In this document: positions 1,503 through 64,000 of the stretch, piece by piece | How the letters are laid out: the number at the start of each line of letters is the position of its first letter | How positions within the stretch are numbered: the first letter of the stretch is position 1 | Assembly (NCBI GenBank): GCA_021789915.1 | Contig: JAJYIV010000002.1 | Coordinates: 613 to 64,612 of the forward strand | Source: a bacterium | Lineage (GTDB): Bacteria; Patescibacteriota; Patescibacteriia; UBA9934; GWF2-40-263 | Length of the DNA: 64,000 nucleotides | Direction: 5' to 3' | Notes under the pieces: generated by a model | What the model saw: only the letters and a program-made list of their open reading frames with translations | Databases searched by the model: none | What the model was told of the DNA's origin: nothing | Position numbers and translations under genes: made by a program

Positions 1503-1510
1503 GGCGCGAA

Positions 1511-1565
1511 CCCCTCCGCCTGCCAAAAAGGAAGCCAGCAGGCATCCTCCCCTTGGCAGGGGAGG
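1511..1565. repeat. GC-rich double-hairpin repeat, intergenic copy
   Basis: CCCCTCCGCCTGCC..GCCAGCAGGC..CCTCCCCTTGGCAGGGGAGG. It is the reverse complement of the copies at 15583 and 63803. Confidence 0.85.
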
Positions 1566-1586
1566 TTCTGCCGCGGACACTCTCTG

Positions 1587-14885: not shown

Positions 14886-16211
14886 TTAGAGCCTGTTCAT
14901 CCGGCAGACGAAGCTCTTCAAATACGCCGCCTCGGGGAAATACACGGACAACGGATGATCCGGGCTCTGACGCACGACCTCGAGCACCTGCAGGTCGACG
15001 CCCGCCTGCACCGACGCGCGGCGCAGCAGGAAGACCAAGTCCTCCTCCGGCAGGAAATGCGAACAGCTGGACGTGATGAAGATGCCGCCGTCCTTCACGA
15101 GCTTGAGCGCGGCGCGGTTCAGGAAATGATAGGCCTTCTTCCCTTCCTCGGCGTCCTTCATCGACTTGATGAGCGCCGGCGGATCCATAACGACGACGTC
15201 GAAAGCGCCGGCAACCCCCTCAGACTCCCCCTTGGCAAGGGGGAGATGGTGCGGGTTGGCGAGCCACTGGAAGACGTCCGCTTTCTCCGTCGCGCAGACC
15301 TCGTCGGACAAGCCGGCCGCCGCCGCCTGCGCGCGCAGCGATGCCAGCGCTTCCTCGGATCCGTCGACGTTCAGGACGGATTTCGCCCCGCCGGCGAAAG
15401 CGGCGAAGGACGTGGCACCGGTGTATGAAAAGAGATTCAGAACCGTCTTCCCTTGCGCGAGCGCGGCGACCCGGTCGCGCAGGTCCTTCTGGTCGAGGAA
15501 GAATCCCGTCTTTTGTCCGTGAAGAGGATCGGCGACGCAACGCCGGCCGTGCTCGAGAAATTCGACTTGACCCAATGCGCGTCCTCCCCTTTCCAAGGGG
15601 AGGCTGCCTGCTGGCCGCTTTTCAGCAGGCGGAGGTGTTGCCGGCGTGTGAATTCTGACGACCGCCTCCAGGTTCTCCTCGCGCCGGCTCGGCATGTCGC
15701 TGCGCTCGACGATCGCGCGCGGCTTGAACGTCTCTTCCAGCGCGGCGACGACGTCGTCACGCAGCGCGTCGAGACCGGCGGTTGCGATCTGGCATACGAG
15801 CACGTCGCCGTAGCGGTCGACGACCAAGCCCGGAATCCCGTCGGACTCGCCGAACACGCAGCGGTAGCCGGTCGTGAACTTCTCCCCCTTTTCAAGGGGG
15901 AGACTCTGCTCCAGAGGGGGTCGAGGGCCGTATCCCATCAAAACCCGTTTCTGGTGCGCATCCGCGATCTTGGCCGCCAGCCAGGCGCGGTCGATGACGG
16001 CCTCTTTGAACGCAAACACGCGCACGGCGATGGACGAGCTGGCGGAGTACGTCCCCGTGCCGATGATGCGCCCCTGGCGGTCCGCGACGTGCACGAGGGC
16101 GCCATGCTCGGGTTTCTTCTGACCGTCGGCCAGCGCGCGCGAAAAAATCCACGGATGGCGGAAGCCGACATTGGCCTCCTTCCCTTCTTTGAGCTTCAGG
16201 ACGGGGTACAT
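14886..16211 (-). CDS. Class I SAM-dependent rRNA methyltransferase (RlmI/RlmK-like, PUA plus MTase)
   Basis: Start MYPVLKLKEGKE..FRHPWIF. VLNLFSYTG and VVMDPP motifs. The long 706-aa ORF prefix is R-rich shadow sequence. Confidence 0.75.
   Translation of the reverse strand: MYPVLKLKEGKEANVGFRHPWIFSRALADGQKKPEHGALVHVADRQGRIIGTGTYSASSSIAVRVFAFKEAVIDRAWLAAKIADAHQKRVLMGYGPRPPLEQSLPLEKGEKFTTGYRCVFGESDGIPGLVVDRYGDVLVCQIATAGLDALRDDVVAALEETFKPRAIVERSDMPSRREENLEAVVRIHTPATPPPAEKRPAGSLPLERGGRALGQVEFLEHGRRCVADPLHGQKTGFFLDQKDLRDRVAALAQGKTVLNLFSYTGATSFAAFAGGAKSVLNVDGSEEALASLRAQAAAAGLSDEVCATEKADVFQWLANPHHLPLAKGESEGVAGAFDVVVMDPPALIKSMKDAEEGKKAYHFLNRAALKLVKDGGIFITSSCSHFLPEEDLVFLLRRASVQAGVDLQVLEVVRQSPDHPLSVYFPEAAYLKSFVCRMNRL
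15225..15245. repeat. GC-rich hairpin repeat, in-frame within a CDS
   Basis: CTCCCCCTTGGCAAGGGGGAG, translated as PLAKGE. Confidence 0.85.
15583..15636. repeat. GC-rich double-hairpin repeat, in-frame within a CDS
   Basis: CCTCCCCTTTCCAAGGGGAGGCTGCCTGCTGGCCGCTTTTCAGCAGGCGGAGG. About 50/55 identical to 63803-63857. Confidence 0.9.
15881..15925. repeat. GC-rich hairpin repeat, in-frame within a CDS
   Basis: TCTCCCCCTTTTCAAGGGGGAGA.., translated as SLPLEKGEKF. Confidence 0.85.
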
Positions 16212-19518: not shown

Positions 19519-19521
19519 ACG

Positions 19522-20252: not shown

Positions 20253-20253
20253 T

Positions 20254-21864: not shown

Positions 21865-21872
21865 AGGGGGAA

Positions 21873-21914: not shown

Positions 21915-21950
21915 ACGAGAAACGGAAACACCTGCGGCGAGCGCAGGTGG
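21915..21950 (-). terminator. Terminator-like hairpin after rplI
   Basis: CACCTGCG-GCGA-GCGCAGGTG, followed on the minus strand by a T-rich tract. Confidence 0.5.
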
Positions 21951-22397
21951 TCAAGGAGACGGTTCGACAATGAGGGTGAATGAGGCTTCCGCCGTCGGGG
22001 CGAGGCGTGCGACGATCTTCGAGGTACCGGCGTTCTTCACGGGCTTGAACCCGGCGAGCGCGTGCTCGGGAACGGCGAACCCGGCTTTCGCGAGCGCCTC
22101 CGCGACCGTGCGCGGCGTGACGGCAGCGTAGAGATGTCCGGTTTCGGTGGCGGATTCCTTGAGGACGAGGCGGAACCCGTTCAGCCGCCGCGCCGTCTGC
22201 TGCACGGTCCCCGTCGCCTGCTTTGCCCGGCGGGCTTCGGCGTCCTTCTTTTCCTTGAGTCGGCGCCGCGCGTCCGCCGATGCCGGCACGGCCGCGCCCG
22301 AGGGGAGCAGCTGGTTGCGCGCCTGGCCGTCGGAGACCGTCACCATGTCCCCGGCCCGACCCAATCCTTTGACGGCCTTCACGAGAATGACATCCAT
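21951..22397 (-). CDS. rplI: 50S ribosomal protein L9
   Basis: MDVILVKAVKGLGRAGDMVTVSDGQARN.. is an L9 N-terminal domain. Confidence 0.9.
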   Translation of the reverse strand: MDVILVKAVKGLGRAGDMVTVSDGQARNQLLPSGAAVPASADARRRLKEKKDAEARRAKQATGTVQQTARRLNGFRLVLKESATETGHLYAAVTPRTVAEALAKAGFAVPEHALAGFKPVKNAGTSKIVARLAPTAEASFTLIVEPSP

Positions 22398-22484
22398 AGC
22401 ACGGCGGCAGTATACGCCCGCGCGGCGTCAGCGGGAAATCGCGGGCGGTGGATAACGCGGACGGGGACAGTTCTATTTCCGTTT

Positions 22485-22652
22485 GACATCTGCGTGTTCG
22501 CCGGTCTTCCCGCCTTCTGTACATCCGAGAAGGACGGCATGGTCGTCACCCTCCCCTACCCGTTAGCGAACGGTCGGGAGAATTCTGTCAGCTTCCGACT
22601 CCGCGGGAAGACAACGGTCCTCGCCGCGCCGCACATCGTCTACGTCCACTGA
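22485..22652 (+). pseudogene. 3' fragment of a paralog of the 24824..25207 gene
   Basis: DICVFAGLPAFCTSEKDG..APHIVYVH aligns with KACVFGGLPAICETSKRG..APHIIYVP. No N-terminal part or start is present. Confidence 0.45.
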
Positions 22653-22706
22653 CGCACGCGCGTCCGCGCGGTTCGTGAGCCCGACGCTCACGGCCGCCGC
22701 GGGCGC
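22626..22706 (+). repeat. 81-bp direct repeat, copy A
   Basis: 78/81 identical to 25181-25261. Covers the last 8 codons, the stop and hairpins. Confidence 0.9.
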
Positions 22707-22749
22707 GATCTTTTTTGTAAACCAAACCCCGCCAGGTTTCTTTTTTGCC

Positions 22750-23205
22750 TCATGTCACTTCGTCGCGAACCGCCGCCAGCAAATCTTCCAACCGCGCGAA
22801 CAGCGGCAACCGGAACCGGTCGCAAACCATCTCGACGTTTCCCTTGCGCCAGAATCCGTCCGGGCAGCACACCAGGACGTGCTTGTCCTTCACCAAGCCG
22901 AGCTCGAGCAGGCTGATCGGACTCTTGGTCGCCGGATCGAAATAAAACGCGACGACGTCCGCCCGGTCGAGTCCGTCCATCTCCCACGTGACCTGCCGGT
23001 TGAACTCGGGGTTCGCCATGGATTGCTTCCAGGAGGCGTCCCATGCGGCACGCCGCGGATTCAGCACGGTCGCGTCGGTGTCCGCGAGCGCGGCGACCGC
23101 TTTCGCCTGCCAGGGTTCGGCGGCCCCCATCTCGATGCTGCCGGCGAGGAAGACGACGGGGGACGCGGCGTCGGCGAAGGAATCGGGCGGCTGGATGTGG
23201 CGCAT
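22750..23205 (-). CDS. Nucleoside 2-deoxyribosyltransferase-like protein
   Basis: 151 aa. VFLAGSIEMG..NPRR..VTWE..ADVV..SPISLLELGL..GFWRKGNV pattern, recalled from the Nuc_deoxyri_tr2-type family. Confidence 0.6.
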   Translation of the reverse strand: MRHIQPPDSFADAASPVVFLAGSIEMGAAEPWQAKAVAALADTDATVLNPRRAAWDASWKQSMANPEFNRQVTWEMDGLDRADVVAFYFDPATKSPISLLELGLVKDKHVLVCCPDGFWRKGNVEMVCDRFRLPLFARLEDLLAAVRDEVT

Positions 23206-23343
23206 AGGAAGGAGACGGCCGTCTTTGTACCACGGCGCCCCGATCGGCGCGAGCCGCGGATGGCAGGCGGCGATTGACAAGGTGCGAAAAAAGACCGAAG
23301 GTACCCGCGGTTCATCGCGGCCGCAAGCCGCACGGAGGGAACC

Positions 23344-24144
23344 ATGATTTCCGAGACGAAGATCGAGATCGTCACGCACGTAACGATAGAGGAACAGCCC
23401 GGCCGGAACGTCTGCGCGAACGACTATCGCAGCATTCTGCCACGACCCAACGACGACGGCATCCTGCTCGACCGGGAGACGGTCGAGCGCTTGTTCGCCG
23501 CGACGGATCTCGATGCGTTCCTCTCGTCCCTGCCGGGAATCTCGACGGATACGTGGCACCGTCACGCCGTCCTCGCGAACGTCATCAAGTTCTCGGAACC
23601 GACGGACGGAAACGCGTTCGGCATCGTCCTCGCCTGGACGACGAAGCGCCACCCCGCCTTCGGCGGCGATCCGACGAGCATGATGGATTACGCCATCGGC
23701 GTGCTCCCCGTGCCGACCGAAACGGCGGCGGTGGCCGCGAAGCTCTTCGCGCGCCGCTCGCTCCTGGCGGACTTGAAACTCGACGACCGCGGCCAGCGCG
23801 AACGGCAGGAGGAAATCCTGAAGGCCATCGGATGGGACGACGGAGCCGAGACCGCGCAGGCGCTGCGCGCGCTGCGCGAGGAGATGATGAGACGCTTGGA
23901 CGAGCTCACAAAAGCGCTCGAGGCGCGCGAGCGGGCGCGGGTGCAGGCCGTCCTCGGCTTGGCCGGCGTGTCGAGCGCTCAGCTCGACGCGCGCGTCGCG
24001 GACGTCGATGGTCAGCTCGACGCGGCGTTCAATGCGATGGCGACGGATCCGAAGCGGCTCGAACCTACGGCGCTCGCGAAGTGCGAGCTCGACATCTACG
24101 GCGCCGTTCCGCCCATCCTGCACGCAAGACTCACGGCCCAATAG
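23344..24144 (+). CDS. Hypothetical protein (266 aa)
   Basis: GGAGGGA RBS 5 nt upstream of the ATG. Balanced composition with a coiled-coil C-terminal half. Confidence 0.65.
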   Translation: MISETKIEIVTHVTIEEQPGRNVCANDYRSILPRPNDDGILLDRETVERLFAATDLDAFLSSLPGISTDTWHRHAVLANVIKFSEPTDGNAFGIVLAWTTKRHPAFGGDPTSMMDYAIGVLPVPTETAAVAAKLFARRSLLADLKLDDRGQRERQEEILKAIGWDDGAETAQALRALREEMMRRLDELTKALEARERARVQAVLGLAGVSSAQLDARVADVDGQLDAAFNAMATDPKRLEPTALAKCELDIYGAVPPILHARLTAQ

Positions 24145-24153
24145 CCGTTCTCG

Positions 24154-24180
24154 ACGCCTCTCCGCGAGGCGTTTTTCTTT
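24154..24180 (+). terminator. Rho-independent terminator
   Basis: ACGCCTC-TCCGC-GAGGCGT followed by TTTTCTTTT. Confidence 0.7.
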
Positions 24181-24252
24181 TCGGGTTCGAAAAAGCTCCA
24201 ACGGGATCGCCACCGCGGCGGGTATCGCTTTCTTTGGAGCTAAAGAAAGATT

Positions 24253-24411
24253 GAGACCTCTGAAAAACTGATGGATTTTCGTTGTCAGCCAAAGGCTGAT
24301 CAGCCTCTGGCTGAAATGGGCTGCCGAGCCCCGCGAACCCTACTGAAACGTAGGGAGAGCGGGGTCGGCGGGCGCCCATGAAACGAAAAGACGCCGTTTT
24401 GCAGAGGTCTC
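24253..24411. ncRNA. Candidate structured RNA or MITE-like nested-hairpin element, copy Y
   Basis: Perfect closing stem GAGACCTCTG/CAGAGGTCTC. Same hairpin order as copy X, with an extra ~45-nt insertion. Confidence 0.35.
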
Positions 24412-24469: not shown

Positions 24470-24545
24470 TGGTGGACCTGATGGGAGTCGAACCCACATC
24501 TTATGGTGCTAACTCAGGCGAGGTTACCGTTTCCTCCACAGGCCC
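24470..24545 (-). ncRNA. tRNA-like RNA (tRNA-Ala-like, degenerate anticodon stem)
   Basis: GGGCCTG-TG-GAGG-AAACGGTAA-CCTC..GTGGG-TTCGACT-CCCAT-CAGGTCC-ACCA. G3:U70 is present. The anticodon arm CCTGA/GTTAGCA/CCATA does not pair. Confidence 0.5.
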
Positions 24546-24823: not shown

Positions 24824-25207
24824 GTGATCCACAGAATCGTGATTGGAACAGTCGTCGCCGTCGGTGTTCTCTACCTCGCAAAGCCCATCGTCGGGTACTT
24901 CCACGAACAGGACGTGAAGGTACGCGCCGAGACCGACGTCGTGTGCGCGCACGTGACCCCGGCCAACTGGGGCGGCGAGGACAGCGCAACCTGCCGTAAG
25001 CTCGTGGCCAAGTTCATCAACATCGACCTCAAGCCGAAGGCCTGCGTCTTCGGCGGACTCCCGGCCATTTGCGAGACGTCGAAGAGGGGCACCGATGTCG
25101 CCGTGTTCCTCAAACGAAAAGACGGGCCGCTCCAGTACAGCCTGCTGCCCATCATGACCAAGGAACAGCTGGCGAACTCGGCGCCGCACATCATCTACGT
25201 CCCCTGA
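24824..25207 (+). CDS. Small membrane-anchored or secreted protein (127 aa)
   Basis: GTG start 7 nt after AAGGAG. N-terminal TM segment IVIGTVVAVGVLYL. Four Cys residues. Confidence 0.6.
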   Translation: MIHRIVIGTVVAVGVLYLAKPIVGYFHEQDVKVRAETDVVCAHVTPANWGGEDSATCRKLVAKFINIDLKPKACVFGGLPAICETSKRGTDVAVFLKRKDGPLQYSLLPIMTKEQLANSAPHIIYVP

Positions 25208-25261
25208 CGCACGCGCGTCCGCGCGGTTCGTGAGCCCAACGCTCACGGCCGCCGCGGGCGC
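25181..25261 (+). repeat. 81-bp direct repeat, copy B
   Basis: 78/81 identical to 22626-22706. Confidence 0.9.
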
Positions 25262-25604: not shown

Positions 25605-26861
25605 TTATTCATACCGCAGCGCCTCGACGGGATCCAGGCGCGCGGCGTTGCGCGCGGGCAGGACGCCGAACACGATGCCGATGGCGGCGGAGACGCCGAC
25701 GCCGAGCAGGATGGCGGAAGGCGGGACGGCGAAGGTCCATGCCAACTGGTTGGCGCGCGCCACGGCGGCCACGATCCACCCGAGCAGGGCGCCCCAGGCG
25801 ATGCCCAAAGAGCCGCCGAGCACGGTCAGCAGCACGGCTTCCAGCAGGAACTCGCGCAGGATGGCGCCGCGCGTGGCACCGACGGCCTTCTTGAGGCCGA
25901 TCTCCGCCGTCCGTTCCGTCACGACGACGTACATGATGTTCATGATGCCCACCCCGCCCACCAGCAGCGAGATGGCGGCGATCGCGATCAGCAGGGCCGT
26001 GATGCCACTGAAGATCACGTTGAACGTATCAAGCGCCTGCGTCTGCGTCTGCACCTCGAAATCGTCCTTCGCCGGATCCGTGATCCGGTGATTGCGCTCC
26101 AGCGTGCTCCGGATTTCCGCCGCCGTCGCGTCGCCGAGCGACGTGTCGCGCATCTGCACGATGCCGACCGAGAGATAGTCGATGCCGAGCATCTTCTTCT
26201 GCGCCGTGGCGAGCGGGATGTAGGCGGAGCTGTCCGCCGTTCCGCCGAACGCCAGCCCGCCCTGCGGGGCGTACACGCCGATCACCTGGAAATTCAGCGT
26301 GCCCAGACGCACCAGCCGGCCGACCGGCTCGTTCTGGCCGAAGAGATCCTTGGCCAGGTCGCTGCCGAGGATGATGACCTGCGCCGCGCCCGCATCCTCC
26401 GCGGGCGTGTAGAAACGCCCTTCCTGCAGCGTGTGCTGGTCGATGCGGAAGCGCTCGGCCCCGGCGCCGTAGTAGATGACGCTTTTCTGATGGTTGCCCT
26501 CGCTGGCCTCCGCCTGGCCCGTCACCATGCCGTAGGCGTCCACGACATTCGGCAAACGGCGGATATCGTCCAAATCGCGCGTCTTGAACGTGTTGATGAC
26601 GATGCCCGTCACGCCGCCGCCCACGCCGGCCGAGAACTTCTGCGCGCGGCTCTTCGTCGTCGGCGGCACGCGCGTGCTGACGAACAGCGTGTTGCTGCCC
26701 AGGGCGTTCACCTGCGACGTGACGAGGCTGCGGAAGCCCGCGCCCGCGGACAGCACCAAGATCACCGTCGAAATGCCGATGACGATGCCGAGGGTCGTCA
26801 AGACCGTCCGGACGGGATTGGACGCGAGGCCGCGGAGGGATTGGCGAAAGGCGGGGAACAT
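25605..26861 (-). CDS. ABC transporter permease (MacB/FtsX-like)
   Basis: 418 aa. N-terminal TM segment, a large extracytoplasmic domain and a C-terminal FtsX-type 3-TM bundle. Confidence 0.85.
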   Translation of the reverse strand: MFPAFRQSLRGLASNPVRTVLTTLGIVIGISTVILVLSAGAGFRSLVTSQVNALGSNTLFVSTRVPPTTKSRAQKFSAGVGGGVTGIVINTFKTRDLDDIRRLPNVVDAYGMVTGQAEASEGNHQKSVIYYGAGAERFRIDQHTLQEGRFYTPAEDAGAAQVIILGSDLAKDLFGQNEPVGRLVRLGTLNFQVIGVYAPQGGLAFGGTADSSAYIPLATAQKKMLGIDYLSVGIVQMRDTSLGDATAAEIRSTLERNHRITDPAKDDFEVQTQTQALDTFNVIFSGITALLIAIAAISLLVGGVGIMNIMYVVVTERTAEIGLKKAVGATRGAILREFLLEAVLLTVLGGSLGIAWGALLGWIVAAVARANQLAWTFAVPPSAILLGVGVSAAIGIVFGVLPARNAARLDPVEALRYE

Positions 26862-26865
26862 AGAT

Positions 26866-26896
26866 GGCTGTAGGCTTTTAGCTTTTAGCTGTTAGC
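26866..26896. repeat. Heptamer array, left arm of an imperfect inverted pair
   Basis: GGCTGTAGGCTTTTAGCTTTTAGCTGTTAGC. Confidence 0.85.
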
Positions 26897-40470: not shown

Positions 40471-41595
40471 TCAGGAGACGAGGGGACGCGCGATCGCGGC
40501 GGCGAGCGCTTCCATCCCCTGCCCCGTCGCCGCGGACACCGGCGCCACGGCCGCGAAGGCCCCCGCGTCGAACGCCGGGCCAAGGCGTCGCCGCCAATCG
40601 GCGCCGGCGGCGTCGATCTTGTTCACCGCGAGCACGCGCGGCGTTTCCGCGGCGCCCAAGCGCTTCAGGATCTCGTCCACCACGCGCAGATGGTCCGCCG
40701 CATGCGCGTCGGCGGCATCCACGACCTGCACGAGCACGTCGGCGTCCGCCGCCTCCGAGAGCGTCGATGCGAACGCGTTCAAGAGCTCGGGCGGCAGATT
40801 TTGGATGAAGCCGATCGTGTCGGAGACGAGCACCTGGCGCGGCGGCTCGTTCTCTTTCCTTGCGACGTACAGCGAGCCAACGCGCGTGTCGAGCGTGGCG
40901 AAGAGCTCGTCGGCCGCATACTCGCGCCGGCGCGTGAGCCGGTTCAGCAGCGACGTCTTGCCGGCGTTCGTGTAGCCGACGAGCGCCGCCGTGGGCAGGC
41001 CCTGCCGCCGACGCCGTTCCTGGCGCGCGCGACGCATCGTCTGATACCGCGCGAGCTTCTCCCCGACCGCTTCGGCGCGCTCGCGCAGGTGCCGGCGCAT
41101 GATCTCCGTGTTCGTCTCGCCCTTGCCGCGCGTACCGGTGCCGCCGCCCTGGCGCGACAATTCCAGGCCCATGCCGTAGATGCGCGGGCCCATGTGCCGG
41201 ATGCCGGCCAACTCGATCTCCAGCCGCGCCTCCGTCGTGCGCGCGTGCTTGGCGAAGATCTTCAAGATGAGATCGAGGCGGTCCCACACCTGGAGGCCGG
41301 CCGGGCGCAGCGCTTCCGAGAGAAGATAGACTTGCCGCGGCTTGAGCCGGTCGTTGATGACCACGAGCGCCGCCCCGAGCCGCTTCCCTTCCTCGGCCAG
41401 CTGCTCGATCTTTCCCGTACCGAGGAATGTCGCCGGATGCGGCGCCGCGCGGCGCTGATGCGTCTTCACGACGACGATGCCGCCGTACGTGCGCACGAGT
41501 TCTTCCAATTCCTGCAGCCGATCCAAACTCTCCGCCTTCGTGAGCCGCGGCGGGATCAGATCGACGAGAATGGTTTTGAGGAGACGGTCGGCCAT
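40471..41595 (-). CDS. hflX: GTPase HflX
   Basis: HflX N-domain followed by G1 GYTNAGKTSL and G3 DTIGF. Confidence 0.9.
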   Translation of the reverse strand: MADRLLKTILVDLIPPRLTKAESLDRLQELEELVRTYGGIVVVKTHQRRAAPHPATFLGTGKIEQLAEEGKRLGAALVVINDRLKPRQVYLLSEALRPAGLQVWDRLDLILKIFAKHARTTEARLEIELAGIRHMGPRIYGMGLELSRQGGGTGTRGKGETNTEIMRRHLRERAEAVGEKLARYQTMRRARQERRRRQGLPTAALVGYTNAGKTSLLNRLTRRREYAADELFATLDTRVGSLYVARKENEPPRQVLVSDTIGFIQNLPPELLNAFASTLSEAADADVLVQVVDAADAHAADHLRVVDEILKRLGAAETPRVLAVNKIDAAGADWRRRLGPAFDAGAFAAVAPVSAATGQGMEALAAAIARPLVS

Positions 41596-51349: not shown

Positions 51350-53398
51350 TCACCGCACGCGCGTCCGGAACAGCTCGTCCGGCCACTTGGCGAAATACTT
51401 GAGGAAGCTGATCGAGTGCGCGCGGGCCATCCGGTTGACGAGCAGCGTGCGCAGCAGGCTGCCCTGGCGCACCGATCCCTTGCCGTAGGCATGCTGCAGC
51501 GCCGCATCGGCCACATAGTACACCGGCCGGTGCATCGCCCACGAGCGGCGGCACAGATCCACGTCCTCGAAGTACATCCAGAAGCGCTCGTCGAAGCCGC
51601 CCAGCGCGCGCCAGTGCTCCATCGGCAGGAACAGCGCGGAGCCCTGCGCCCAATCCACCATGCGCGTTTCGCCTGGCGGCGTGTCGCGCATCAGGAAACG
51701 ATGGAGGTAGCGGCGGCCGAAGGCCGTGCCGCCGAGCGTCGTGCGCTGGACGAGCGGCAGCGGCCACGACGGGAAGCGGCGCACGGTTTCCTGCGCCTGT
51801 CCGTCGGGATAGACGATCTTGGGCGCGGCGATGCCGGCGCGCGGATGCGCGCGCATGAACGCGACGAGCTTGGCGAAGAGCCGATCGTCGACGAGTTCCG
51901 TATCCGGGTTCAGCACGAAGAGGAACTCGGCGTCGAGCTCGGCGGCGCCGCGGTTCACGGAGCTGCCGTAGCCGGCGTCCCAGTTGCGCTGGACGACCAC
52001 GCCGTCGGGAATCGCGTCCCACAGCACGGCCGCGGCATCGTACGCCGTCGACGCGTTGTCCACGACGACGACGCCGACGCGCAGGCCGGACGCCTTGCGC
52101 GCGCGATCGAGCGAACGCAGACACGCGGCGCTCAAATCGTCGTGCGAGACGATGACGACGGCGATGTCGAGGTAAGTAGCTGGCGGCTGGGGGCTGGCGG
52201 CTGGGGGAGAAAACGGGAGCGGGGCCTGCGCGCGCGCCGCGTCCGCGGGCGACGGCACGGCGCGAACCGCGCCGAACCGCGCGGCGTACGCGCGCCGCTT
52301 CGTGATCAGCTCATGCCGATGCTCCCACGTTTCCCGCCACGCCTCGGTGCACACGCGCGGCCGCATGACGAGCCAATATGCCGCCTTCGCCGCCTCATAC
52401 GGAAGCACGGCCCATGCGCGCGCCGGCGCCGAACGGAACTCCCCCTGGCTCCCTCTTGAAAAGAGGGGGAAGTGCATCGCCAGCGTCCAAAGATGGTTGC
52501 GGTACGAGTGGAACACCGGCCGCCAGGTTTGCGCGGTGCGGCCGATTCCCCCCCTGCCTGCCTCGCATACCCCCCGCCTGCCAAAATGCGGCCAGCAGGC
52601 AGCCCCCCTTGGCAGGGGGGCAATCCTGGCCGTGCCGAAGCTGCGGCGATGGTACGCGACGGCGTCGGACACGACGCCGGAGGCGAAGCCCGCGCGGCGC
52701 AATCTCCACGCAAGCTCGACGTCTTCCTTGTACGAGACGAACGACGGGTCAAACAAATTCCCGTCCAACGACGCCGCCTCTACCGCCGCACGGCGATACA
52801 TCGGCAGGCAGCCCGACACCCCGAACGCCTCGTGCACGCCCTCATGCAGCTGCGCCGTCGAAACACGCTCCCCTGCTCCGATGTCGCGCACGGCGCCCGT
52901 TGCCGACATCGCCAAGCCGAAACTGTCGATCACGTCCGTGCGCCCGCCGGACCCCTCTGCCCAGCTGAGCTGGGCCGTCCCCCCTTGGCAGGGGGGGACG
53001 ACACACGCCGCCCGATCGAAATCCCATCGATACACGCGCCCGGCGACGGACCCGAGCCGCGCGTCCGCGTCCAGCGCGGCGACGAGCCGCTCGAGATACG
53101 CCGGTTCCAGGATCGCATCGTCGTTGTGCAGCATCACGTACGCCGCCTGATGCTTGGAGAACAGCAGGTTATGCGCGCCGGCAAAGTCGACGTTGCGCGG
53201 CCCGACGTCCACGTACACGGCGCGGTCGCCGAGTTCCCGCGCGAACGCGCGCACCGCCTCGGCCTGCACGGGATCCGACGCATTGTCCGTCACGTACAGC
53301 GTCCAATCGCGGAACGTCTGCGCGCGCAGGGACGCCAAAATATGCGGCAGGTACCGCGCGCCGTCGTAGCAGGAAAGTTGGATGGCGAGTTTGGACAT
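51350..53398 (-). CDS. Fused double GT2 glycosyltransferase (682 aa)
   Basis: Two GT2 modules (LSCYDGARYL..HNDDA and VIVSHDD..LNPDT..YFEDVDLC). Carries two repeat inserts. Confidence 0.8.
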   Translation of the reverse strand: MSKLAIQLSCYDGARYLPHILASLRAQTFRDWTLYVTDNASDPVQAEAVRAFARELGDRAVYVDVGPRNVDFAGAHNLLFSKHQAAYVMLHNDDAILEPAYLERLVAALDADARLGSVAGRVYRWDFDRAACVVPPCQGGTAQLSWAEGSGGRTDVIDSFGLAMSATGAVRDIGAGERVSTAQLHEGVHEAFGVSGCLPMYRRAAVEAASLDGNLFDPSFVSYKEDVELAWRLRRAGFASGVVSDAVAYHRRSFGTARIAPLPRGAACWPHFGRRGVCEAGRGGIGRTAQTWRPVFHSYRNHLWTLAMHFPLFSRGSQGEFRSAPARAWAVLPYEAAKAAYWLVMRPRVCTEAWRETWEHRHELITKRRAYAARFGAVRAVPSPADAARAQAPLPFSPPAASPQPPATYLDIAVVIVSHDDLSAACLRSLDRARKASGLRVGVVVVDNASTAYDAAAVLWDAIPDGVVVQRNWDAGYGSSVNRGAAELDAEFLFVLNPDTELVDDRLFAKLVAFMRAHPRAGIAAPKIVYPDGQAQETVRRFPSWPLPLVQRTTLGGTAFGRRYLHRFLMRDTPPGETRMVDWAQGSALFLPMEHWRALGGFDERFWMYFEDVDLCRRSWAMHRPVYYVADAALQHAYGKGSVRQGSLLRTLLVNRMARAHSISFLKYFAKWPDELFRTRVR
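52548..52621. repeat. GC-rich double-hairpin repeat (G6 subfamily), in-frame within a CDS
   Basis: ..CCCCCCGCCTGCCAAAATGCGGCCAGCAGGCAGCCCCCCTTGGCAGGGGGG. Reverse complement of the 60812 copy. Confidence 0.9.
52959..52999. repeat. GC-rich hairpins, in-frame within a CDS
   Basis: GCCCAGCTGAGCTGGGC plus GTCCCCCCTTGGCAGGGGGGGAC, translated as PPCQGGTAQLSWA. Confidence 0.85.
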
Positions 53399-53411
53399 AG
53401 ATCGCTGGCAA

Positions 53412-53530
53412 CCCCTCCGCCTGCCGATGGTCGGCCAGCAGGCAGCCTCCCCTTGGGGGGGCGCGTTTTTCCGCGTCCCCTCTTTTCCAAGAGCCTGTCC
53501 TGAGCGAGCGGAGCGAGTCGAAGGAAGGGG
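53412..53530. repeat. Composite repeat filling an intergenic gap
   Basis: Double-hairpin copy (53412-53461) plus a CCTGTCCTGAGCGAGCGGAGCGAGTCGAAGGAAGGGG module. Confidence 0.85.
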
Positions 53531-53551
53531 TCAAGGGGTGGTTGCCGCATT

Positions 53552-55319: not shown

Positions 55320-55757
55320 TCATTCCAGCGGCCAGGTTTCCAGCGGCAGGTTCACGCTTTCGTCCGGCTCCCAGGCGACGGTCGCCCCGTTGCAGACGAT
55401 CGCGGCGCCTTCGCCGGCGCAGCGCCACGCATAGGCCACGCCCGGCGGGATCGTCAGCAGGAAGGACTTCCCTTCCGCCGGCGCCAGCTCGTACGTCTCC
55501 GCCGCGCCCCTGGCCGGCGAACCGTCGCGCTCGTCGCGGATCCAGAAGCGCATCGCGCCGGAGACGACCGCCATGTTGGACGTGGAACGGGCGTGCCGTT
55601 TCCATCCTTTCGTCACGCCCGGGTTCACGGTCGAAAAATACACCTCGCCGAAGCGCGTGAACGGCGCGCGCCCCTCGCGCAGGAAATGCATCACGCTTCC
55701 CCGCTCGTCGCGGACGATCTTGAGGGGCGTCAGCAGGACGCCGGGAATGGAGGACAT
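55320..55757 (-). CDS. Sugar-nucleotide 3,5-epimerase-like cupin (RmlC family)
   Basis: 145 aa. DERGSVMHFLRE..GEVYFSTVNPG..KGWKRH pattern. Confidence 0.7.
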   Translation of the reverse strand: MSSIPGVLLTPLKIVRDERGSVMHFLREGRAPFTRFGEVYFSTVNPGVTKGWKRHARSTSNMAVVSGAMRFWIRDERDGSPARGAAETYELAPAEGKSFLLTIPPGVAYAWRCAGEGAAIVCNGATVAWEPDESVNLPLETWPLE

Positions 55758-55761
55758 AGAA

Positions 55762-55788
55762 GTTCGCCGTTAGCCGTTAGCCGTTAGG
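55762..55788. repeat. Heptamer array (GCCGTTA units)
   Basis: GTTCGCCGTTAGCCGTTAGCCGTTAGG. Confidence 0.9.
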
Positions 55789-55810
55789 AAAAAGGACGCG
55801 CAGCCCCCCA

Positions 55811-58370: not shown

Positions 58371-58419
58371 GTGATCCTTCGACTTCGCTCGCCTTCGGCT
58401 CGCTGCGCTCAGGATGACA
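58371..58419. repeat. Palindromic element (GTCATCCTGAGCG type, reverse orientation)
   Basis: GTGATCCTTCGACTTCGCTCGCCTTCGGCTCGCTGCGCTCAGGATGAC. Supplies the stop of the 58409..58624 ORF. Confidence 0.8.
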
Positions 58420-58624
58420 CAGGGACGGGCTCTTCGTGAAGAGCCCCCCACCACGAGGCAAAGACGATCGCGGCGAGCAAAAACCAATGCACGGAAAAAT
58501 AATCCGAGACGAAGCCGGCGCGGATCGCGTCGCAGGCCCAGAAGACCGCGTATGAAACGATCGACGCGTAAAACCCGGTGCGGGCGACGGCTTGCTGGGC
58601 AGGGCTATCAAGGTGCAAGGTCAT
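58409..58624 (-). CDS. Small membrane protein (71 aa)
   Basis: ATGA overlap with the upstream stop. Two hydrophobic segments. Confidence 0.5.
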   Translation of the reverse strand: MTLHLDSPAQQAVARTGFYASIVSYAVFWACDAIRAGFVSDYFSVHWFLLAAIVFASWWGALHEEPVPVSS

Positions 58625-59460
58625 ACGTGCAGGAGCGTTTTCAGCGTGTCGGCAAGATTCGGCCGCGTCATCGTCACGTCCATGCGGTGGATGACGAAGG
58701 AAATTGGGGGCAGGGGGGGATTCGCCACGCCGGGCACCGACAGGACGATCTTCCATGCGCCGTTCTGCCGCAGGGCCGTCTTCGGGTTCACGGTGAACGT
58801 CGCAACCGTCCAGCCGTCCACCGTCCGCGGCGTCGCGTAGCGCGCGATCACGAAATCGATTCCCGCCGCGTCCAGATCCAAGCTCGGCAGCAGGCGCGAC
58901 GCGCCGGCGGGCAGCAAGCCGTCGTAGCGGTACTGCGCCATGCGGCTCCCCGCCGGCGGATGCGCGAGGAAATCCGCGATCGACGCGTACGTCGGCGTGC
59001 GCTGCAGCAGCACGAGGCCGTCCGCATCCAGCCGATGCCACGGCGAATCGTCGATCAGGGTGTTTTCCAGCGGTTGCAAATCATACTGCTCGTCCGGTCC
59101 TGGCTTCGTCAATGCGCCCGCCTCGACGATCGGCACGCCGGCATCCTTGAACCACACGTTGACCGTGACCGCGTCGAAGCGGCGCAGCGGATGCACGAAC
59201 GTGTATACCGGATCGCCGACGACGGCCTGCGCCGCAAGATTTCCCCCCTGCCAAGGGGGGAACGCCCGGCCCGGCTGGGCAAGGGGGGTCGGTGCCTGAA
59301 CGCGCTGGTCCGGCCGCAGCGGATCGACGAAGGCGCTGCGTTCTCCCGGCTCCCAGGAGACGCGGAACGTTCCCGTCGGCACGAGGAATTGCCAGCCCAA
59401 CCAGCCGAAGATCGCGATCGGCACGGCGATGATCAGGATTTGGAACGGACGTGGGGACAT
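58621..59460 (-). CDS. Hypothetical membrane-anchored protein (279 aa)
   Basis: N-terminal TM segment ILIIAVPIAIFGWLGW. Carries a repeat insert, FPPWQGGN. Confidence 0.6.
   Translation of the reverse strand: MSPRPFQILIIAVPIAIFGWLGWQFLVPTGTFRVSWEPGERSAFVDPLRPDQRVQAPTPLAQPGRAFPPWQGGNLAAQAVVGDPVYTFVHPLRRFDAVTVNVWFKDAGVPIVEAGALTKPGPDEQYDLQPLENTLIDDSPWHRLDADGLVLLQRTPTYASIADFLAHPPAGSRMAQYRYDGLLPAGASRLLPSLDLDAAGIDFVIARYATPRTVDGWTVATFTVNPKTALRQNGAWKIVLSVPGVANPPLPPISFVIHRMDVTMTRPNLADTLKTLLHV
59241..59262. repeat. GC-rich hairpin repeat, in-frame within a CDS
   Basis: TTCCCCCCTGCCAAGGGGGGAA. Confidence 0.85.
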
Positions 59461-59465
59461 GGGAA

Positions 59466-59495
59466 GCGTTTAGCCATTAGCCGTTAGCCTTTAGC
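59466..59495. repeat. Heptamer array (TTAGCCN units)
   Basis: GCGTTTAGCCATTAGCCGTTAGCCTTTAGC. Confidence 0.9.
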
Positions 59496-59506
59496 ATGTG
59501 TCTCTC

Positions 59507-59530
59507 GCCTGACGGCTGACGGCTAATGGC
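59507..59530. repeat. Heptamer array (GGCTGAC/GGCTAAT), inverted partner
   Basis: GCCTGACGGCTGACGGCTAATGGC. Contains the stop codon of the 59523..61409 ORF. Confidence 0.9.
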
Positions 59531-61409
59531 TTGCAATGACATACAGCGTCTCGATCCCGAACGTCTGCACCGGCACGAACGTAAGGCCGTCGGCCTTCAG
59601 TTTGTCCGTGTTGAGATAGTTCAGATCTTGCGCCGGCAGCGTGATGCCGAAGTAGTACGTCGGCGCGTGCGCGACGAGCGCGGGCAGCAGCGCATAGGTC
59701 CGCGGATCGCGCAGCGGATAGCGCACGGCGCGATCCGGAAAGAAGATTTTGTCGTCGCGGTCAACGACGATGACGGCGTCCGCCGGCGTCAGGCGCATCA
59801 CGGCGTCATGCACGGCGCGCTCTTGCGCCAACACCTGCGCCTCAGCGAACAAGCCGTCCTCCGGGGTCAGGAACGCCGTGCGGAACCCGAGCGCCGCCCA
59901 GGCGACCCAGCCGACGACGAGCACGACGGAGCCGAGGCGCTTCGCACGCGCGGCAAGCTCGTCGAGCGCCACGGCCGCGAGCGGCACCCAGGCGACGAAG
60001 ATCGGCAGCCAGTACCGCACGTGCGAATTGCCGACGGTGATCTGCGTCGGATCCGGATTGTCCGTGAACGTCCAGCTGCCGTACATCAGCACGAGCCAGA
60101 CCGTCACGACGAGGGCGACGAGGAGATAGGGCCAAAAGCAGCTGGCAGCTGGCAGCTGGCAGCTGGGGGAAGAACCGCGACGGCGCTTCGACAAGACGCG
60201 GACGGCCAACAAGATGATGCCGAGCGCCGCCAGGACGAACTCCCACCAGAACATCCTCAAGCCATAGGCGACGAACTGCCGCCAGGCCAGGCGCGGATGG
60301 ATGCCGAAGGGAAAGACGAAGGAGAGCGCTCGCTCCATGGCGCGCCGCCACGCGGGCATGGAGGCTCCGGGGGCGAGCGCTGCCGCAGACGTGGATGATT
60401 CCCCCCCTGCCAAGCCTGTCCTGAGCGAAGTCGAAGGAGGGGGGCTGCCGGCTGACTCCATGACGGCCGGCGGGGGGGTATGCGCCACGGCTATGGCCGG
60501 CACGGAGACGAGATCGCCGCCGGACGCGTCCGCCGCCGCCTGGTAGCCCGTCGTCCACGGCGAACCGTACAGACGCTGGTTCAAAAACGGCATGGGCGAG
60601 AGGACGACGAGGAACCCAAGCACGCCGGCGGCGACGAAGCGGCGATCCAGCTGCCGCCATTGCCAGGCGAAGGCGGCCGCCGCGGGAACGACCAACCACA
60701 CGGCTTCCGACGCGCGGATGAAGAGCGCGAGCCCCAGCAGCGCGCCCGCGGCGAAACCGTCGAGCGCATGGTGCCAGCGCCCCGCGGATGCACGGGAAGC
60801 GCCCGCGAGGATTGCCCCCCTGCCAAGGGGGGCTGCCTGCTGGCCGTCATGCGGCAGGCGGGGGGTATGCGAGGTGGACGTGGTGGAAGCGTTTTGAAAC
60901 GGCCGCGCGAGGAAAAACCAGAAGGCGAAGCCCACGCATGCGAGGAACGGCACATTGGGCATGAGCGAGCGGGCCGTGTAGAACCACCACGCCGGCTGCA
61001 GCGCGAGCAGCGCGCCCGCGATCCATCCCGCGCGCCGGCCGAACAGGCGCCCGAAGACGGCCGCCCACGCGAGCACGCCGAGCGCGGAGAGCAGGATCGG
61101 CACGTACGGGATCGCCCGGGCGCCGAACGCCTTCGCCGCGACGCCGAGCGCGAGCGGCAAGCCGAGGAAGCTCGCGGGAACGAGCGCGCCGCGCGTCGCA
61201 AGCACGCTGCGCGGATGCAGCGCGTCGCCGAGCGCGGCGGCGAGCGGCTCGGGCGCGGACAGCGTCGACGTCGCCGCGTACGCCCCGGCGAAGAACGACA
61301 CGGCCGTTTCGTCCGGCGACACGAAGATGGCTCCCGACGCGCGCAGCGCGAGGGAACCGAGGACGAGCAGCAGGCAGGAAGAGGCGAGCAGCCAGCGGAC
61401 GGGGTTCAT
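59523..61409 (-). CDS. Polytopic membrane protein, probable ArnT/PMT-like glycosyltransferase
   Basis: 628 aa with more than 10 TM segments and a soluble C-terminal domain. Sits in a glycosylation cluster. Two repeat inserts. Confidence 0.5.
   Translation of the reverse strand: MNPVRWLLASSCLLLVLGSLALRASGAIFVSPDETAVSFFAGAYAATSTLSAPEPLAAALGDALHPRSVLATRGALVPASFLGLPLALGVAAKAFGARAIPYVPILLSALGVLAWAAVFGRLFGRRAGWIAGALLALQPAWWFYTARSLMPNVPFLACVGFAFWFFLARPFQNASTTSTSHTPRLPHDGQQAAPLGRGAILAGASRASAGRWHHALDGFAAGALLGLALFIRASEAVWLVVPAAAAFAWQWRQLDRRFVAAGVLGFLVVLSPMPFLNQRLYGSPWTTGYQAAADASGGDLVSVPAIAVAHTPPPAVMESAGSPPPSTSLRTGLAGGESSTSAAALAPGASMPAWRRAMERALSFVFPFGIHPRLAWRQFVAYGLRMFWWEFVLAALGIILLAVRVLSKRRRGSSPSCQLPAASCFWPYLLVALVVTVWLVLMYGSWTFTDNPDPTQITVGNSHVRYWLPIFVAWVPLAAVALDELAARAKRLGSVVLVVGWVAWAALGFRTAFLTPEDGLFAEAQVLAQERAVHDAVMRLTPADAVIVVDRDDKIFFPDRAVRYPLRDPRTYALLPALVAHAPTYYFGITLPAQDLNYLNTDKLKADGLTFVPVQTFGIETLYVIASH
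60399..60485. repeat. Composite GC-rich repeat, in-frame within a CDS
   Basis: TTCCCCCCCTGCCAAG plus CCTGTCCTGAGCGAAGTCGAAGGAGGGGGG plus CTGCCGGC..GCCGGCGGGGGGGTATGCG. Confidence 0.85.
60812..60874. repeat. GC-rich double-hairpin repeat (G6 subfamily), in-frame within a CDS
   Basis: TTGCCCCCCTGCCAAGGGGGGCTGCCTGCTGGCCGTCATGCGGCAGGCGGGGGGTATGCGAGG. Confidence 0.9.
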
Positions 61410-62040: not shown

Positions 62041-64000
62041 ATGCCTCGCGGACGGTTTGTCGTTAAATCTACCACCATTTGGACGATTTTTCCATTCGTT
62101 TTTGCCGTGAACGCGCTTTGGGTGAAAAACGCGGCCCTGGGCCTCGTACTGCTTGCGGCGTTTTTGGCGCTGCTCGGCTCGGCCGTCGGGCGCGCGGCGG
62201 CGCCCGAGGAGGGACGCGCGGTGCGCTGGTGGCTGGGCGTCTGGCAGCTGCTGTCCGCCCTCATCATTGTCGCCGCAGCGATGTATTATGCCATGCCGTT
62301 TTCGCCGGCGGCGGCCGATGTGCTCGTCATCCTCGCCCTCGCCGCTGCCTGGACGATCCGCGGGCGCGCGAAGACGCCGCCGCCTCGCCGGGCGGACGCT
62401 CCGGCGCAGCGCGGATGGCCTTTGGCCGCCGGGCTCGCCGCGCTCGCGGGTTTCGCCTCCACGCTGTTCCTGCTGCGCGCCTCCGCGACCGTCCGCGCGG
62501 TCGCGTCGCCGTGGGACGTCGTGTCCCCGTGGACATTCGTCGCGTTCGGCGCGGGTGTCTTGGCGCTGTCCGCTCTCTGGTTCCAGGGCCGCGGACGCGC
62601 GTCCGTTCCTCCGCCGGGATCGCCCCCCTGCCAAGGGGGGCTGCCTGCTGGCCTTGCCCCCCTGCCAAGGCCTGTCCTGAGCGAAGTCGAAGGAGGGGCT
62701 GCCCGCTGTCCGCACGGCGCCGGGCGGGGGGTTCCGTCGGCAGGCGTGGGGTTCATCGTCCCGCTCACGATTCTGGCGCTGTTCGTCTTTCTCAGCGTGA
62801 ACCTCGCCGTCTTCCCGCTGGGCGCCGGCTTCGACGCCTTCATCCATCGCGCGACGGAAGCGCACATCGCCGCGACCGGCAGCATCACGCCCAAGCCGCT
62901 TTACTACGCCGGCCAGTACGCGCTCGTCGTCCTCCTGCACCACGCCTTCGCGCTGCCCGTGGACGCCGTCGATCTCTGGCTGCTGCCGCTGCTCGCCGCG
63001 TTCCTGCTCCCGTCGGCGTGGACGGATGCGGCCGACCGTCTTCTTCCCGAGCGCCGCTGGGCGCCGTTCACGCTCGCGCTCCTGTTCCTGCTGCCGCTCG
63101 GCGCGTTCGCCACGACGACGCCGCAAGGTCTGGCGGATCTTTGGATTCTGCTGCTCGTGCTGGCAAGCGTGCCGCTGCTGGCGGCGTCTCCGCTTGACGG
63201 CCCGGCGCGGCGGCGGCGCCTGTGGCTGCTCGCGCTCTCCGCGCTGGCGACCGCGGCCATTCATCCGCTCGCCGGACTGCCCGCGCTTGCCTTCGTCGCG
63301 TATCTTGCCGCCGCGCGCACGCGATGGTTGCGCCGCGCGATCATCGCCGTCGGCGCGCTGCTGCTGCCCGTCAGCTTCCTCGTGGAGAACCGCGGCCTGG
63401 GCGGACGCGGGCTGGATCTTGCCGGGCTCTGGACGAAGCTCGCCGCGCTGTTCCCCGCCCCGCCCGCGCTGGGCGCGCCGTACCATCCGGCGCTGGATTT
63501 CGCCGCGGCGCTCGGCTGGGCGGCGGGATGGATCGTCCTGCTGCTGGCCATCCTCGGCTGGCGGCGCGCGCCGAACCGCCTGCGCTGGGCGGCGGCGGCG
63601 ATGGCGGGCCTGTTGCTGGCGGATTACGTGTTACTCGGCACCATCGTGGATTTTTCGTACCTGATCGACTATGAACGCGCGAGCTATGCCGCGCGCCTGC
63701 TGCCGCTCGCGCTGTTCTTTCTCGCGCCGCTCGCCATGGTCGGGTTGGGACGGATCCGGCAGCGGCTGGATGGATTCCCCCGCGCACGGGAGTCTGCCTC
63801 GTCCTCCCCTTTCCAAGGGGAGGCTGCCTGCTGGCCGCTTTCTGGCAGGCGGAGGGGTTGCCGGCGCAGCGAACAGGAAGGAAGGAAAGCGCCGCGCGCG
63901 GTGCGCTGGTTCGCCGTCGCGCTCGCCGCGGGAGCCGTGCTCGGCGCGTGGTATGCCGCCTATCCGCGCGACGACGCCTATCTCAAAGGCCACGGCTACA
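62041..64000 (+). CDS. Large polytopic membrane protein, 3'-partial (absent from the ORF track)
   Basis: I read all 653 codons from the ATG at 62041 to the window end and found no stop. There is an in-frame TGA at 62023. Many L/A/W-rich TM segments. Confidence 0.7.
   Translation, partial: MPRGRFVVKSTTIWTIFPFVFAVNALWVKNAALGLVLLAAFLALLGSAVGRAAAPEEGRAVRWWLGVWQLLSALIIVAAAMYYAMPFSPAAADVLVILALAAAWTIRGRAKTPPPRRADAPAQRGWPLAAGLAALAGFASTLFLLRASATVRAVASPWDVVSPWTFVAFGAGVLALSALWFQGRGRASVPPPGSPPCQGGLPAGLAPLPRPVLSEVEGGAARCPHGAGRGVPSAGVGFIVPLTILALFVFLSVNLAVFPLGAGFDAFIHRATEAHIAATGSITPKPLYYAGQYALVVLLHHAFALPVDAVDLWLLPLLAAFLLPSAWTDAADRLLPERRWAPFTLALLFLLPLGAFATTTPQGLADLWILLLVLASVPLLAASPLDGPARRRRLWLLALSALATAAIHPLAGLPALAFVAYLAAARTRWLRRAIIAVGALLLPVSFLVENRGLGGRGLDLAGLWTKLAALFPAPPALGAPYHPALDFAAALGWAAGWIVLLLAILGWRRAPNRLRWAAAAMAGLLLADYVLLGTIVDFSYLIDYERASYAARLLPLALFFLAPLAMVGLGRIRQRLDGFPRARESASSSPFQGEAACWPLSGRRRGCRRSEQEGRKAPRAVRWFAVALAAGAVLGAWYAAYPRDDAYLKGHGY
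62621..62740. repeat. Composite GC-rich repeat, in-frame within a CDS
   Basis: CCCCCCTGCCAAGGGGGGCTGCCTGCTGGCC plus CCCCCCTGCCAAGG plus CCTGTCCTGAGCGAAGTCGAAGGAGGGG.., translated as PPCQGGLPAGLAPLPRPVLSEVEGG. Confidence 0.9.
63803..63857. repeat. GC-rich double-hairpin repeat, in-frame within a CDS
   Basis: CCTCCCCTTTCCAAGGGGAGGCTGCCTGCTGGCCGCTTTCTGGCAGGCGGAGGGG, translated as SSPFQGEAACWPLSGRRRG. Confidence 0.9.

Follow-up and report, generated by a model that had tools for sequence, protein, structure and literature searches.

Does a short repeat that lies within a fused gene tell how the gene came to be fused? This question is raised by a 64-kb stretch of contig JAJYIV010000002.1 (hereafter the window, i.e. 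the whole DNA analyzed, ∼65% GC throughout) from a bacterium of the Patescibacteria, in which copies of a palindromic repeat family, made of C-runs and G-runs, interrupt the gene for a double glycosyltransferase (GT) with two GT2 modules in a single chain of 682 amino acids (aa). An initial annotation, which had correctly delineated the open reading frame (ORF), its two domains, and the translations of the copies it quoted, proposed that recombination between repeats had produced the fusion. We find that the copies are insertions, in frame and in protein loops, that they are lineage-specific, and that they are younger than the fusion. It is likely that they are a non-autonomous, hairpin-forming element of the type of repetitive extragenic palindromes (REP), Rickettsia palindromic elements (RPE), or miniature inverted-repeat transposable elements (MITE), which multiplied in one high-GC lineage of Patescibacteria, probably related to Uhrbacteria, and whose surviving copies are in-frame loops or lie between genes. 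Coordinates of all the features are listed in Table 1.

The GT2-GT2 fusion is older than the repeats

A protein search with the 682-aa double GT2, of which an exact look-up found no record, yielded ∼50 full-length relatives (594-655 aa, coverage 98-99%, identity 40-66%), labeled, where named, as Patescibacteria and Candidatus Uhrbacteria. Two alignments were used, one of 16 sequences and one of 48 (the window protein and 47 homologues, 40-66% identical to it). The window protein is the longest of the 48, which have a median length of ∼608 aa, and three of its residue runs are common to no or almost no homologue. The fused double-GT2 architecture is present in 47/47 homologues. Because all of these proteins are fused and repeat-free, the alignments indicate that the fusion predates the repeats. 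As assessed by Foldseek, the top structural matches of the protein are two-domain polymerases, the chondroitin polymerase K4CP and the heparosan synthase PmHS2, which also harbor two GT-A domains in a single chain. Although identity is just 9-14% and the orientation of the domains differs (template modeling score about 0.3), these nearest solved structures are consistent with an old and functional fusion.

These findings refute the proposal that recombination between repeat copies fused two separate GT2 genes, which is highly improbable. Although one copy does lie between the two Pfam GT2 matches, the same fusion occurs in 47 homologues without a repeat at any of the insert positions, the very observation that the initial annotation had named as refuting its own proposal. 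Furthermore, the copy in question (insert 2, see below) is not at the domain junction but precedes the variable linker by ∼100 residues and lies ahead of a conserved helical region, and the structural neighbors of the protein are classic two-domain polymerases.

Three inserts interrupt the double GT2 gene

Alignment of the copies reveals the plan of the repeat unit. It consists of a hairpin A (a C-run, a TTNNCAA-type loop, i.e. TGCCAA, TTTCCAA, TTGCCAA, or TTTTCAA, and a G-run), followed by a variable hairpin B, another G-run, and, last, a short tail (TATGCGAGG or TTGCCGGCG). The initial annotation had the double GT2 gene interrupted twice; both copies are where it placed them, but a third insert had been overlooked. 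Insert 1 displays, in mRNA sense, CGTC, a C-run, TGCCAA, a G-run, the hairpin GCCCAGC-TCA-GCTGGGC, and a second G-run. Insert 2 is a full unit (hairpin A, hairpin B, and G-run) with an additional 3' arm; it has 15-nt terminal inverted repeats, GATTCCCCCCCTGCC and GGCAGGGGGGCAATC (52544-52558 and 52611-52625), which are 93% complementary, and its predicted fold has a minimum free energy (MFE) of -53.9 kcal/mol. Insert 3 is composed of the hairpin CCCCCTC-TTTTCAA-GAGGG and a GGGGGAG run. Aligned codon by codon, the two closest orthologues (L003 and L001) show clear-cut gaps, one of 16 codons and one of 28. Together with the near-complete vacancy of the three positions among the homologues (Table 1), this bears out the earlier view that members of one modular family have genuinely inserted here.

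The location of insert 2 had to be revised. Rather than in the interdomain linker, as initially annotated, it follows the final strand of the N-terminal GT-A domain (residues 239-250) and precedes the conserved helical region (residues 292-380), and the true variable linker corresponds to residues ∼380-406. This linker contains a heptamer tandem repeat (52179-52207), which is distinct from the hairpin family. In an AlphaFold model of the protein (mean predicted local distance difference test, pLDDT, of 84.7), the segments with a pLDDT <50 are residues 133-148, 255-287, and 316-322, i.e. the three inserts, and residues 380-406, the linker. As modeled, the inserts would behave like flexible loops upon an intact fold.

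The copies are related to each other well beyond chance. The segment 52562-52621 is 75% identical across 60 nt to 53405-53464 in the neighboring intergenic gap, and an 18-mer (CCCCCCTTGGCAGGGGGG) occurs exactly at both 52603-52620 and 52979-52996. Allowing up to three mismatches, this 18-mer has 10 matches in the window (0.07 expected), and the pattern of the second hairpin has five (0.00 expected).

The repeats are modular palindromic units

The gap that separates the double GT2 gene from the upstream 288-aa GT2 gene, which had been described as essentially all repeat, consists entirely of repeat. Three loci are syntenic with the last part of the window (50-64 kb), namely L001/L002 (58% identity, 54% GC) and L003 (66% identity, 64% GC). 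Whereas the gap measures 153 nt in the window, its orthologues measure only 3 nt (L001) and 1 nt (L003), and no C-run/G-run hairpins were found in L001-L003. The gap is occupied by a composite element, in which small hairpins (53464-53492) lie between a double hairpin (53405-53464) and an expanded copy of a third module (module 3, 53492-53530). Its inverted ends (GCTGGCAACCCC and GGGGTGGTTGCCGC) pair with each other in the predicted fold (MFE -68.5 kcal/mol).

Units range from 27 to 131 nt in length, the shortest copies being bare hairpins of 17-21 nt; longer ones carry terminal inverted repeats. The stems, which are C/G runs, measure 5-7 bp, and the loops are 4-7 nt long. As initially noted, there are two stem subfamilies among the aligned copies (CCCCCC/GGGGGG and CCTCCCC/GGGGAGG), which are distinguished by a compensated T-A pair. 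Hairpin B takes the form of CTGCCTGC...GCAGGCGG, CTGCCGGC...GCCGGCGG, CTGCCCG...CGGGCGG, or GCCCAGC...GCTGGGC, or is reduced to just a few bases. Pairing within hairpin B amounts to 96.9%, with compensatory changes, as one pair occurs as UA, CG, and GC. Copies that are 92-94% identical (Table 1) point to a recent spread. In two copies, module 3 is found within the loop of hairpin A (60397-60444 and 62653-62698), which makes the assembly truly modular, as had been suggested.

The family is found in frame in four further genes

Coding copies had been described inside the double GT2 gene, but the family is not confined to it. Members are found, in frame, inside four further genes of the window, which brings the count to ∼12 insert blocks in five genes. 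Each coding copy corresponds to a gap in the L001 orthologue, in Escherichia coli RlmI (PDB 3C0K), or in 12 RlmI homologues. Overall, ∼11 of 15 copies are within coding sequences. Intergenic copies are found upstream of tRNA-Gln and in the gap with the composite element.

Table 1. Host genes, repeat copies, and related features of the window
Feature	Position	Strand	Details
Double GT-A (GT2+GT2) glycosyltransferase gene	51350..53398	minus	682 aa; ORF calling, translation, Pfam
Insert 1	52961..53008	minus	48 nt, 16 codons, ACVVPPCQGGTAQLSW; residues 131-146; occupied in 0/47 homologues; codon alignment with L003 and L001
Insert 2	52541..52624	minus	84 nt, 28 codons, IAPLPRGAACWPHFGRRGVCEAGRGGIG; residues 259-286 (core 261-283); occupied in 0/47 homologues
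Insert 3	52436..52462	minus	∼27 nt, 9 codons, FSRGSQGEF region; residues 313-321; occupied in ≤1/47 homologues
Heptamer tandem repeat	52179..52207		GCTGGCGGCTGGGG x2, (GCTGGCG)n, coding SPPAASPQPP; in true linker, variable run at residues 394-401; pLDDT <50 at residues 391-406
Composite element	53399..53551	minus	153 nt; fills whole gap between 288-aa GT2 gene and double GT2 gene
RlmI-type 23S rRNA methyltransferase gene	14886..16211	minus	3 copies; gaps in 3C0K and 12 homologues
Hairpin-A unit in RlmI-type gene	15222..15248	undefined	encodes HHLPLAKGESEG; protein site also filled in L147
Full CCTCCCC-subfamily unit in RlmI-type gene	15580..15646	plus	antisense to gene; encodes TPPPAEKRPAGSLPLERGG
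Unit in RlmI-type gene	15879..15921	plus	CTCCCCC-TTTTCAA-GGGGGAG, CTCTG-CTC-CAGAG, GGGGG; encodes PPLEQSLPLEKGEK
Unit in gene for 279-aa protein (58621..59460, minus)	59238..59290	plus	insert TPLAQPGRAFPPWQ; missing from L001 orthologue
Gene for 628-aa membrane protein	59523..61409	minus	2 copies
Unit in 628-aa protein gene	60397..60476	plus	module 3 nested in hairpin-A loop; hairpin B variant CTGCCGGC...GCCGGCGG
Full CCCCCC-subfamily unit in 628-aa protein gene	60809..60875	plus	92.5% identical to copy in double GT2 gene
Membrane protein gene	starts at 62041	plus	3 copies in 2 blocks of ∼49 and 38 residues
Two adjacent units in gene starting at 62041	62616..62733	plus	second with module 3 read PVLSEVEG; ∼49-residue block; missing from L001 orthologue
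Full CCTCCCC-subfamily unit in gene starting at 62041	63800..63866	plus	38-residue block; 94% identical to 15580-15646; missing from L001 orthologue
Intergenic copy upstream of tRNA-Gln	1505..1568	minus	
Stand-alone module 3 relative	58372..58418	minus	GTCATCCTGAGCGCAGCGAGCCGAAGGCGAGCGAAGTCGAAGGATC; 3' end of small gene, just upstream of HIT gene

Relative to local transcription, five copies are in sense and five in antisense orientation, with four or more reading frames in use. Among the encoded peptides are PLPRGA, PPCQGG, PPWQGG, PLGRGA, PLERGG, and PFQGEA. Pro...Gly loops are encoded in every frame used, since C-runs specify Pro and G-runs specify Gly in any frame, and stop codons are absent from every frame actually read and from most other frames of each copy. 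The reading frame is kept in all ∼12 insert blocks, which in the absence of selection would have a probability of roughly (1/3)^12. Neither orientation is preferred and several frames are used, which speaks against a specific peptide or a role in RNA that depends on the strand. When the insert peptides were concatenated and compared with the protein database, no match was obtained, but the source proteins were not recovered either, probably because of composition filtering. A search of Rfam identified no family for the repeats, the sole matches being far below threshold. Two other possibilities were considered. Post-transcriptional removal of the inserts was judged unlikely, as all copies are in frame and stop-free in the frame that is read, and uptake signals were rejected because such motifs arise through point mutation rather than by insertions of 27-131 nt.

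Distribution beyond the window and assembly support

The core pattern joining hairpins A and B (GGCCAGCAGGCAGCCN{0,1}CCCCTTGG) is absent from 185,579 species genomes (one each) and from Joint Genome Institute metagenomes. Hairpin B on its own gave 23 single metagenome matches and none in viral contigs; because hairpin A adjoins none of the 23, we judged these to be chance matches in GC-rich DNA. An 18-mer of hairpin A (CCCCCCTGCCAAGGGGGG) is found exactly in five IMG/VR contigs (L252-L256), each time with a second G-run 2-5 nt later, which is the layout of the window units.

Assembly support comes from an independent assembly, GCA_027328745.1, of which one contig matches window positions 9417-24329 at 99.88%. 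The three copies of the RlmI-type gene are reproduced there and in an ENA contig, with a single nucleotide polymorphism, which is in one of the stems. An assembly or chimera artefact is therefore so improbable an explanation of the apparent inserts that it can be set aside. In its favor, the two assemblies of the organism part at a palindromic repeat, but the independent assembly reproduces three copies at 99.9% identity, the frame is kept in all copies, and the copies differ among themselves. The palindrome at which the assemblies part is long, intergenic, of the GTCATTGCGAG...CTCGCAATGAC type, and is found at 9443-9552 in the window and at 14780-14895 in L149. Its inner part differs between the two assemblies, which diverge completely just beyond; either an assembly broke there, or the repeat was the site of a rearrangement.

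The repeats resemble RPEs and intragenic REPs

Precedents are established both for RPEs inserted in frame and for REPs of the GTAG/CGTC superfamilies inside genes (PMC10969869, PMC3733652). RPEs (Ogata et al. 2000, as summarized in these papers) are palindromic and found in frame in many unrelated functional genes, as are the repeats described here. Other shared properties in these accounts are the location at fold-compatible positions of the peptide chain, several inserts per gene, intergenic copies, and no known transposase of their own. There are also differences. As portrayed there, RPEs are ∼100-150 bp, AT-rich, and specific to Rickettsia, whereas the repeats in the window are 27-131 nt, made of C-runs and G-runs, and modular, and their host is not a Rickettsia but a free-living or episymbiotic lineage of Patescibacteria with 65% GC. 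Local density in coding sequences is also much higher, with ∼12 inserts in 64 kb compared with the 44 gene insertions that PMC10969869 gives for the whole Rickettsia conorii genome. In functional terms the likeness to RPEs is clear, since five unrelated genes are hit in frame and the inserts are fold-compatible as assessed by pLDDT and by the gaps in the alignment with 3C0K.

Intragenic REPs of the GTAG/CGTC superfamilies (Di Nocera et al. 2013, PMC3733652) are short stem-loops, often paired, some of which are wholly inside ORFs, where they add 20-30 residues, whereas others supply stop codons. Similar features are seen here. CGTC-type REPs also have no dedicated transposase (PMC3733652), and none was found for our repeats among 37 scanned ORFs of the window. 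However, the GTAG tag of REPs and REPINs is absent from the aligned copies, and most copies are intragenic rather than extragenic, which is the main location of REPs and REPINs. CGTC precedes the stem in three of ∼13 copies (63800, 15580, and 52959), but CGTC REPs have an 8-9-bp stem starting with A-T pairs, a 4-5-nt loop, and a CCA tail (PMC3733652), whereas the copies in the window have 5-7-bp stems of C/G runs, 4-7-nt loops, and no CCA tail. The repeats thus work like RPEs and intragenic REPs but lack the sequence hallmarks of the GTAG and CGTC superfamilies.

With MITEs (Correia/NEMIS, ERIC, BOX, and Nezha), the repeats have in common that they are small and non-coding on their own, that longer copies have terminal inverted repeats (the 15-nt arms of insert 2 and the paired ends of the composite), that they fold strongly, and that they occasionally form in-frame fusions with host ORFs. 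In contrast to MITEs, no target-site duplication is demonstrated here, and the shortest copies are bare hairpins. The sequence of this genome that was covered amounts to 64 kb plus 4.5 kb, and no parent insertion sequence (IS) with ends matching these repeats is known. No report was found in the literature searched on REPs or MITEs in Patescibacteria.

A non-autonomous element best explains the repeats

How would such an element spread and persist? We infer that the repeats are selfish or neutral DNA. Since C-runs yield Pro, G-runs yield Gly, and most copies are stop-free, in-frame insertion produces a flexible loop. In brief, each insertion of a length divisible by three would add a Pro...Gly loop to the host protein, insertions that shift the frame or hit structured parts of the protein would presumably be lost, and the surviving copies would be those in surface loops of working genes or in intergenic gaps. 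Movement may involve single-stranded hairpin intermediates or a transposase acting in trans. Several findings weigh against this explanation or limit it. A Pfam scan of 37 window ORFs found no transposase or REP-associated tyrosine transposase (of the IS200/IS605-type Y1 kind). Codon alignment with L003 and L001 leaves the insert boundaries ambiguous and establishes no target-site duplication (the flanking GGCC is itself palindromic), so that for both reasons the means of spread can be proposed only indirectly. Folding z-scores are just -0.5 to -2.6 despite very stable predicted folds, because base composition alone yields strong folding. The copies seen are concentrated at 1.5 kb, 15-16 kb, and 52-64 kb, and the stretch from 16 to 52 kb showed none, a distribution that could reflect local spread, local tolerance, or function. 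Finally, a more distant relative, L147 (54% GC), whose RlmI is 59% identical to that of the window, contains two in-frame hairpin-A modules (CTCCCCTTGGTAAGGGGAGG and TCCCCCTGCCAAGGGGGA; 6440-6505). They occupy the same RlmI loop as the third RlmI insert of the window, which is empty in closer relatives. Read from these sequences, the pattern hints at a site preference or at an old insertion followed by (repeated) loss, and it makes hairpin A older or more widespread than the composite.

Two functional explanations were weighed against that of a non-autonomous element. The hairpins might be selected nucleic-acid structures, acting in mRNA (pausing, stability, or coupling of cistrons) or in DNA (protein binding or antisense termination), with the coding copies kept for that role. 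This is unlikely, although the compensatory changes in hairpin B, the predicted fold of the intergenic composite, which joins a stop codon and the next start codon, the terminator-like hairpin and T-run on the antisense strand at 53445-53462, and the clustering of copies in cell-envelope genes would all fit. However, orientation is unbiased (five versus five), no Rfam family matches, the orthologous loci function without the elements, with their genes abutting, and conservation of the hairpin would be equally expected if mobility depended on it. Even less probable, and in our opinion a poor candidate, is that the Pro/Gly-rich peptides encoded by the copies serve their host proteins as adaptive modules, e.g. 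surface loops or modification sites, recruited repeatedly. Each insert is indeed in a loop, several hosts are membrane or envelope proteins, and one RlmI loop has been filled in two lineages. Nevertheless, one and the same DNA yields different peptides, as both of its orientations and four or more of its frames are translated, a cytoplasmic rRNA methyltransferase is among the hosts, and copies are found between genes too.

If the repeats are a non-autonomous element, very small and streamlined genomes of uncultured Patescibacteria can harbor selfish palindromic DNA in working genes, such as those for an rRNA methyltransferase and cell-envelope enzymes. A hairpin of C-runs and G-runs would be suited to intragenic life because it gives Pro...Gly loops in any frame. 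Such inserts can lengthen proteins, create spurious "novel" regions, break assemblies, and serve as strain markers. They can also mislead the inference of domain fusions, as in the present case.

Module 3 is a separate and widespread motif

Recurrence of the third module elsewhere in the window, which had been noticed initially, was verified. The copy at 53494-53530 recurs at 60413-60442 and 62669-62698, and the copies differ from one another by a 9-nt internal expansion. Its core is the 18-mer CCTGAGCGAAGTCGAAGG, with window sites at 53498-53524, 60419-60437, and 62675-62693, and a stand-alone relative that provides the stop codon of a small gene (Table 1). Exact CCTGAGCGAAGTCGAAGG has at least 120 matches in species genomes of many phyla with a GC content of 32-71% (L004-L123). 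Among the matches listed, the same GCCTG[CT] flank frequently recurs next to it, and some matches are arranged in 24-nt tandem arrays. It is also found in 101 IMG/VR viral contigs (L151-L251), compared with none for a shuffled control. CCTGAGCGAAGTCGAAGG is a separate motif, not specific to this genome. Rfam has no family for module 3, and the literature searched for its DNA string or for the peptides LSEVEG and FDFAQG yielded nothing. In one locus (L101), two inverted GTCATCCTGAGCGAAGTCGAAGGATC copies at 2706-2723 (plus) and 4704-4721 (minus) flank a complete group II intron (Rfam matches at 2816-4624), which, from this arrangement, seems to have landed in the loop of a hairpin of this kind.

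A broader scenario, which we put forward as speculative and rather unlikely, is that the repeats of the window are a local assembly of wider "micro-palindromes." As a universal module, CCTGAGCGAAGTCGAAGG, often with its GCCTG[CT] flank, would move between phyla, possibly on phages, and nest in lineage-specific hairpins, spread by some widespread machinery. Patescibacteria would then stand out in that their essential genes tolerate such modules, which are translated as loops.

Other repeats and features of the window

Several other repeats are present in the window. Six minus-strand genes are preceded, 8-12 nt before the start codon, by tandem repeats of a GGCTAAN heptamer (coding strand, 3-5 units; 10883-10923, 14759-14799, 21862-21902, 26856-26896, 55755-55795, and 59455-59495). 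At 59461-59522, an inverted pair of such repeats takes up a gap of 62 nt; in the orthologous locus L001, this gap measures 1 nt. Another heptamer tandem, (GCAGCTG)x4, is in the coding sequence of the 628-aa protein (60138-60166). At this site, the L001 orthologue instead bears a distinct insert, LLRRMPSRNDEGEGHGDVGD, apparently from another repeat family that is translated in frame. A 27-nt tandem repeat in five copies lies inside a minus-strand ORF (19196-19365). An 81-nt direct repeat, 96% identical, is found at 22626-22706 and 25181-25261, i.e. 2.5 kb apart, with a partial copy in L149 (1614-1704). Finally, ARAGORN predicts two unusual tRNA-Ala genes, at 24470-24545 (anticodon AGC) and 40523-40616 (94 nt, anticodon GGC), of which Rfam reports the former weakly (39.8 bits) and not the latter.

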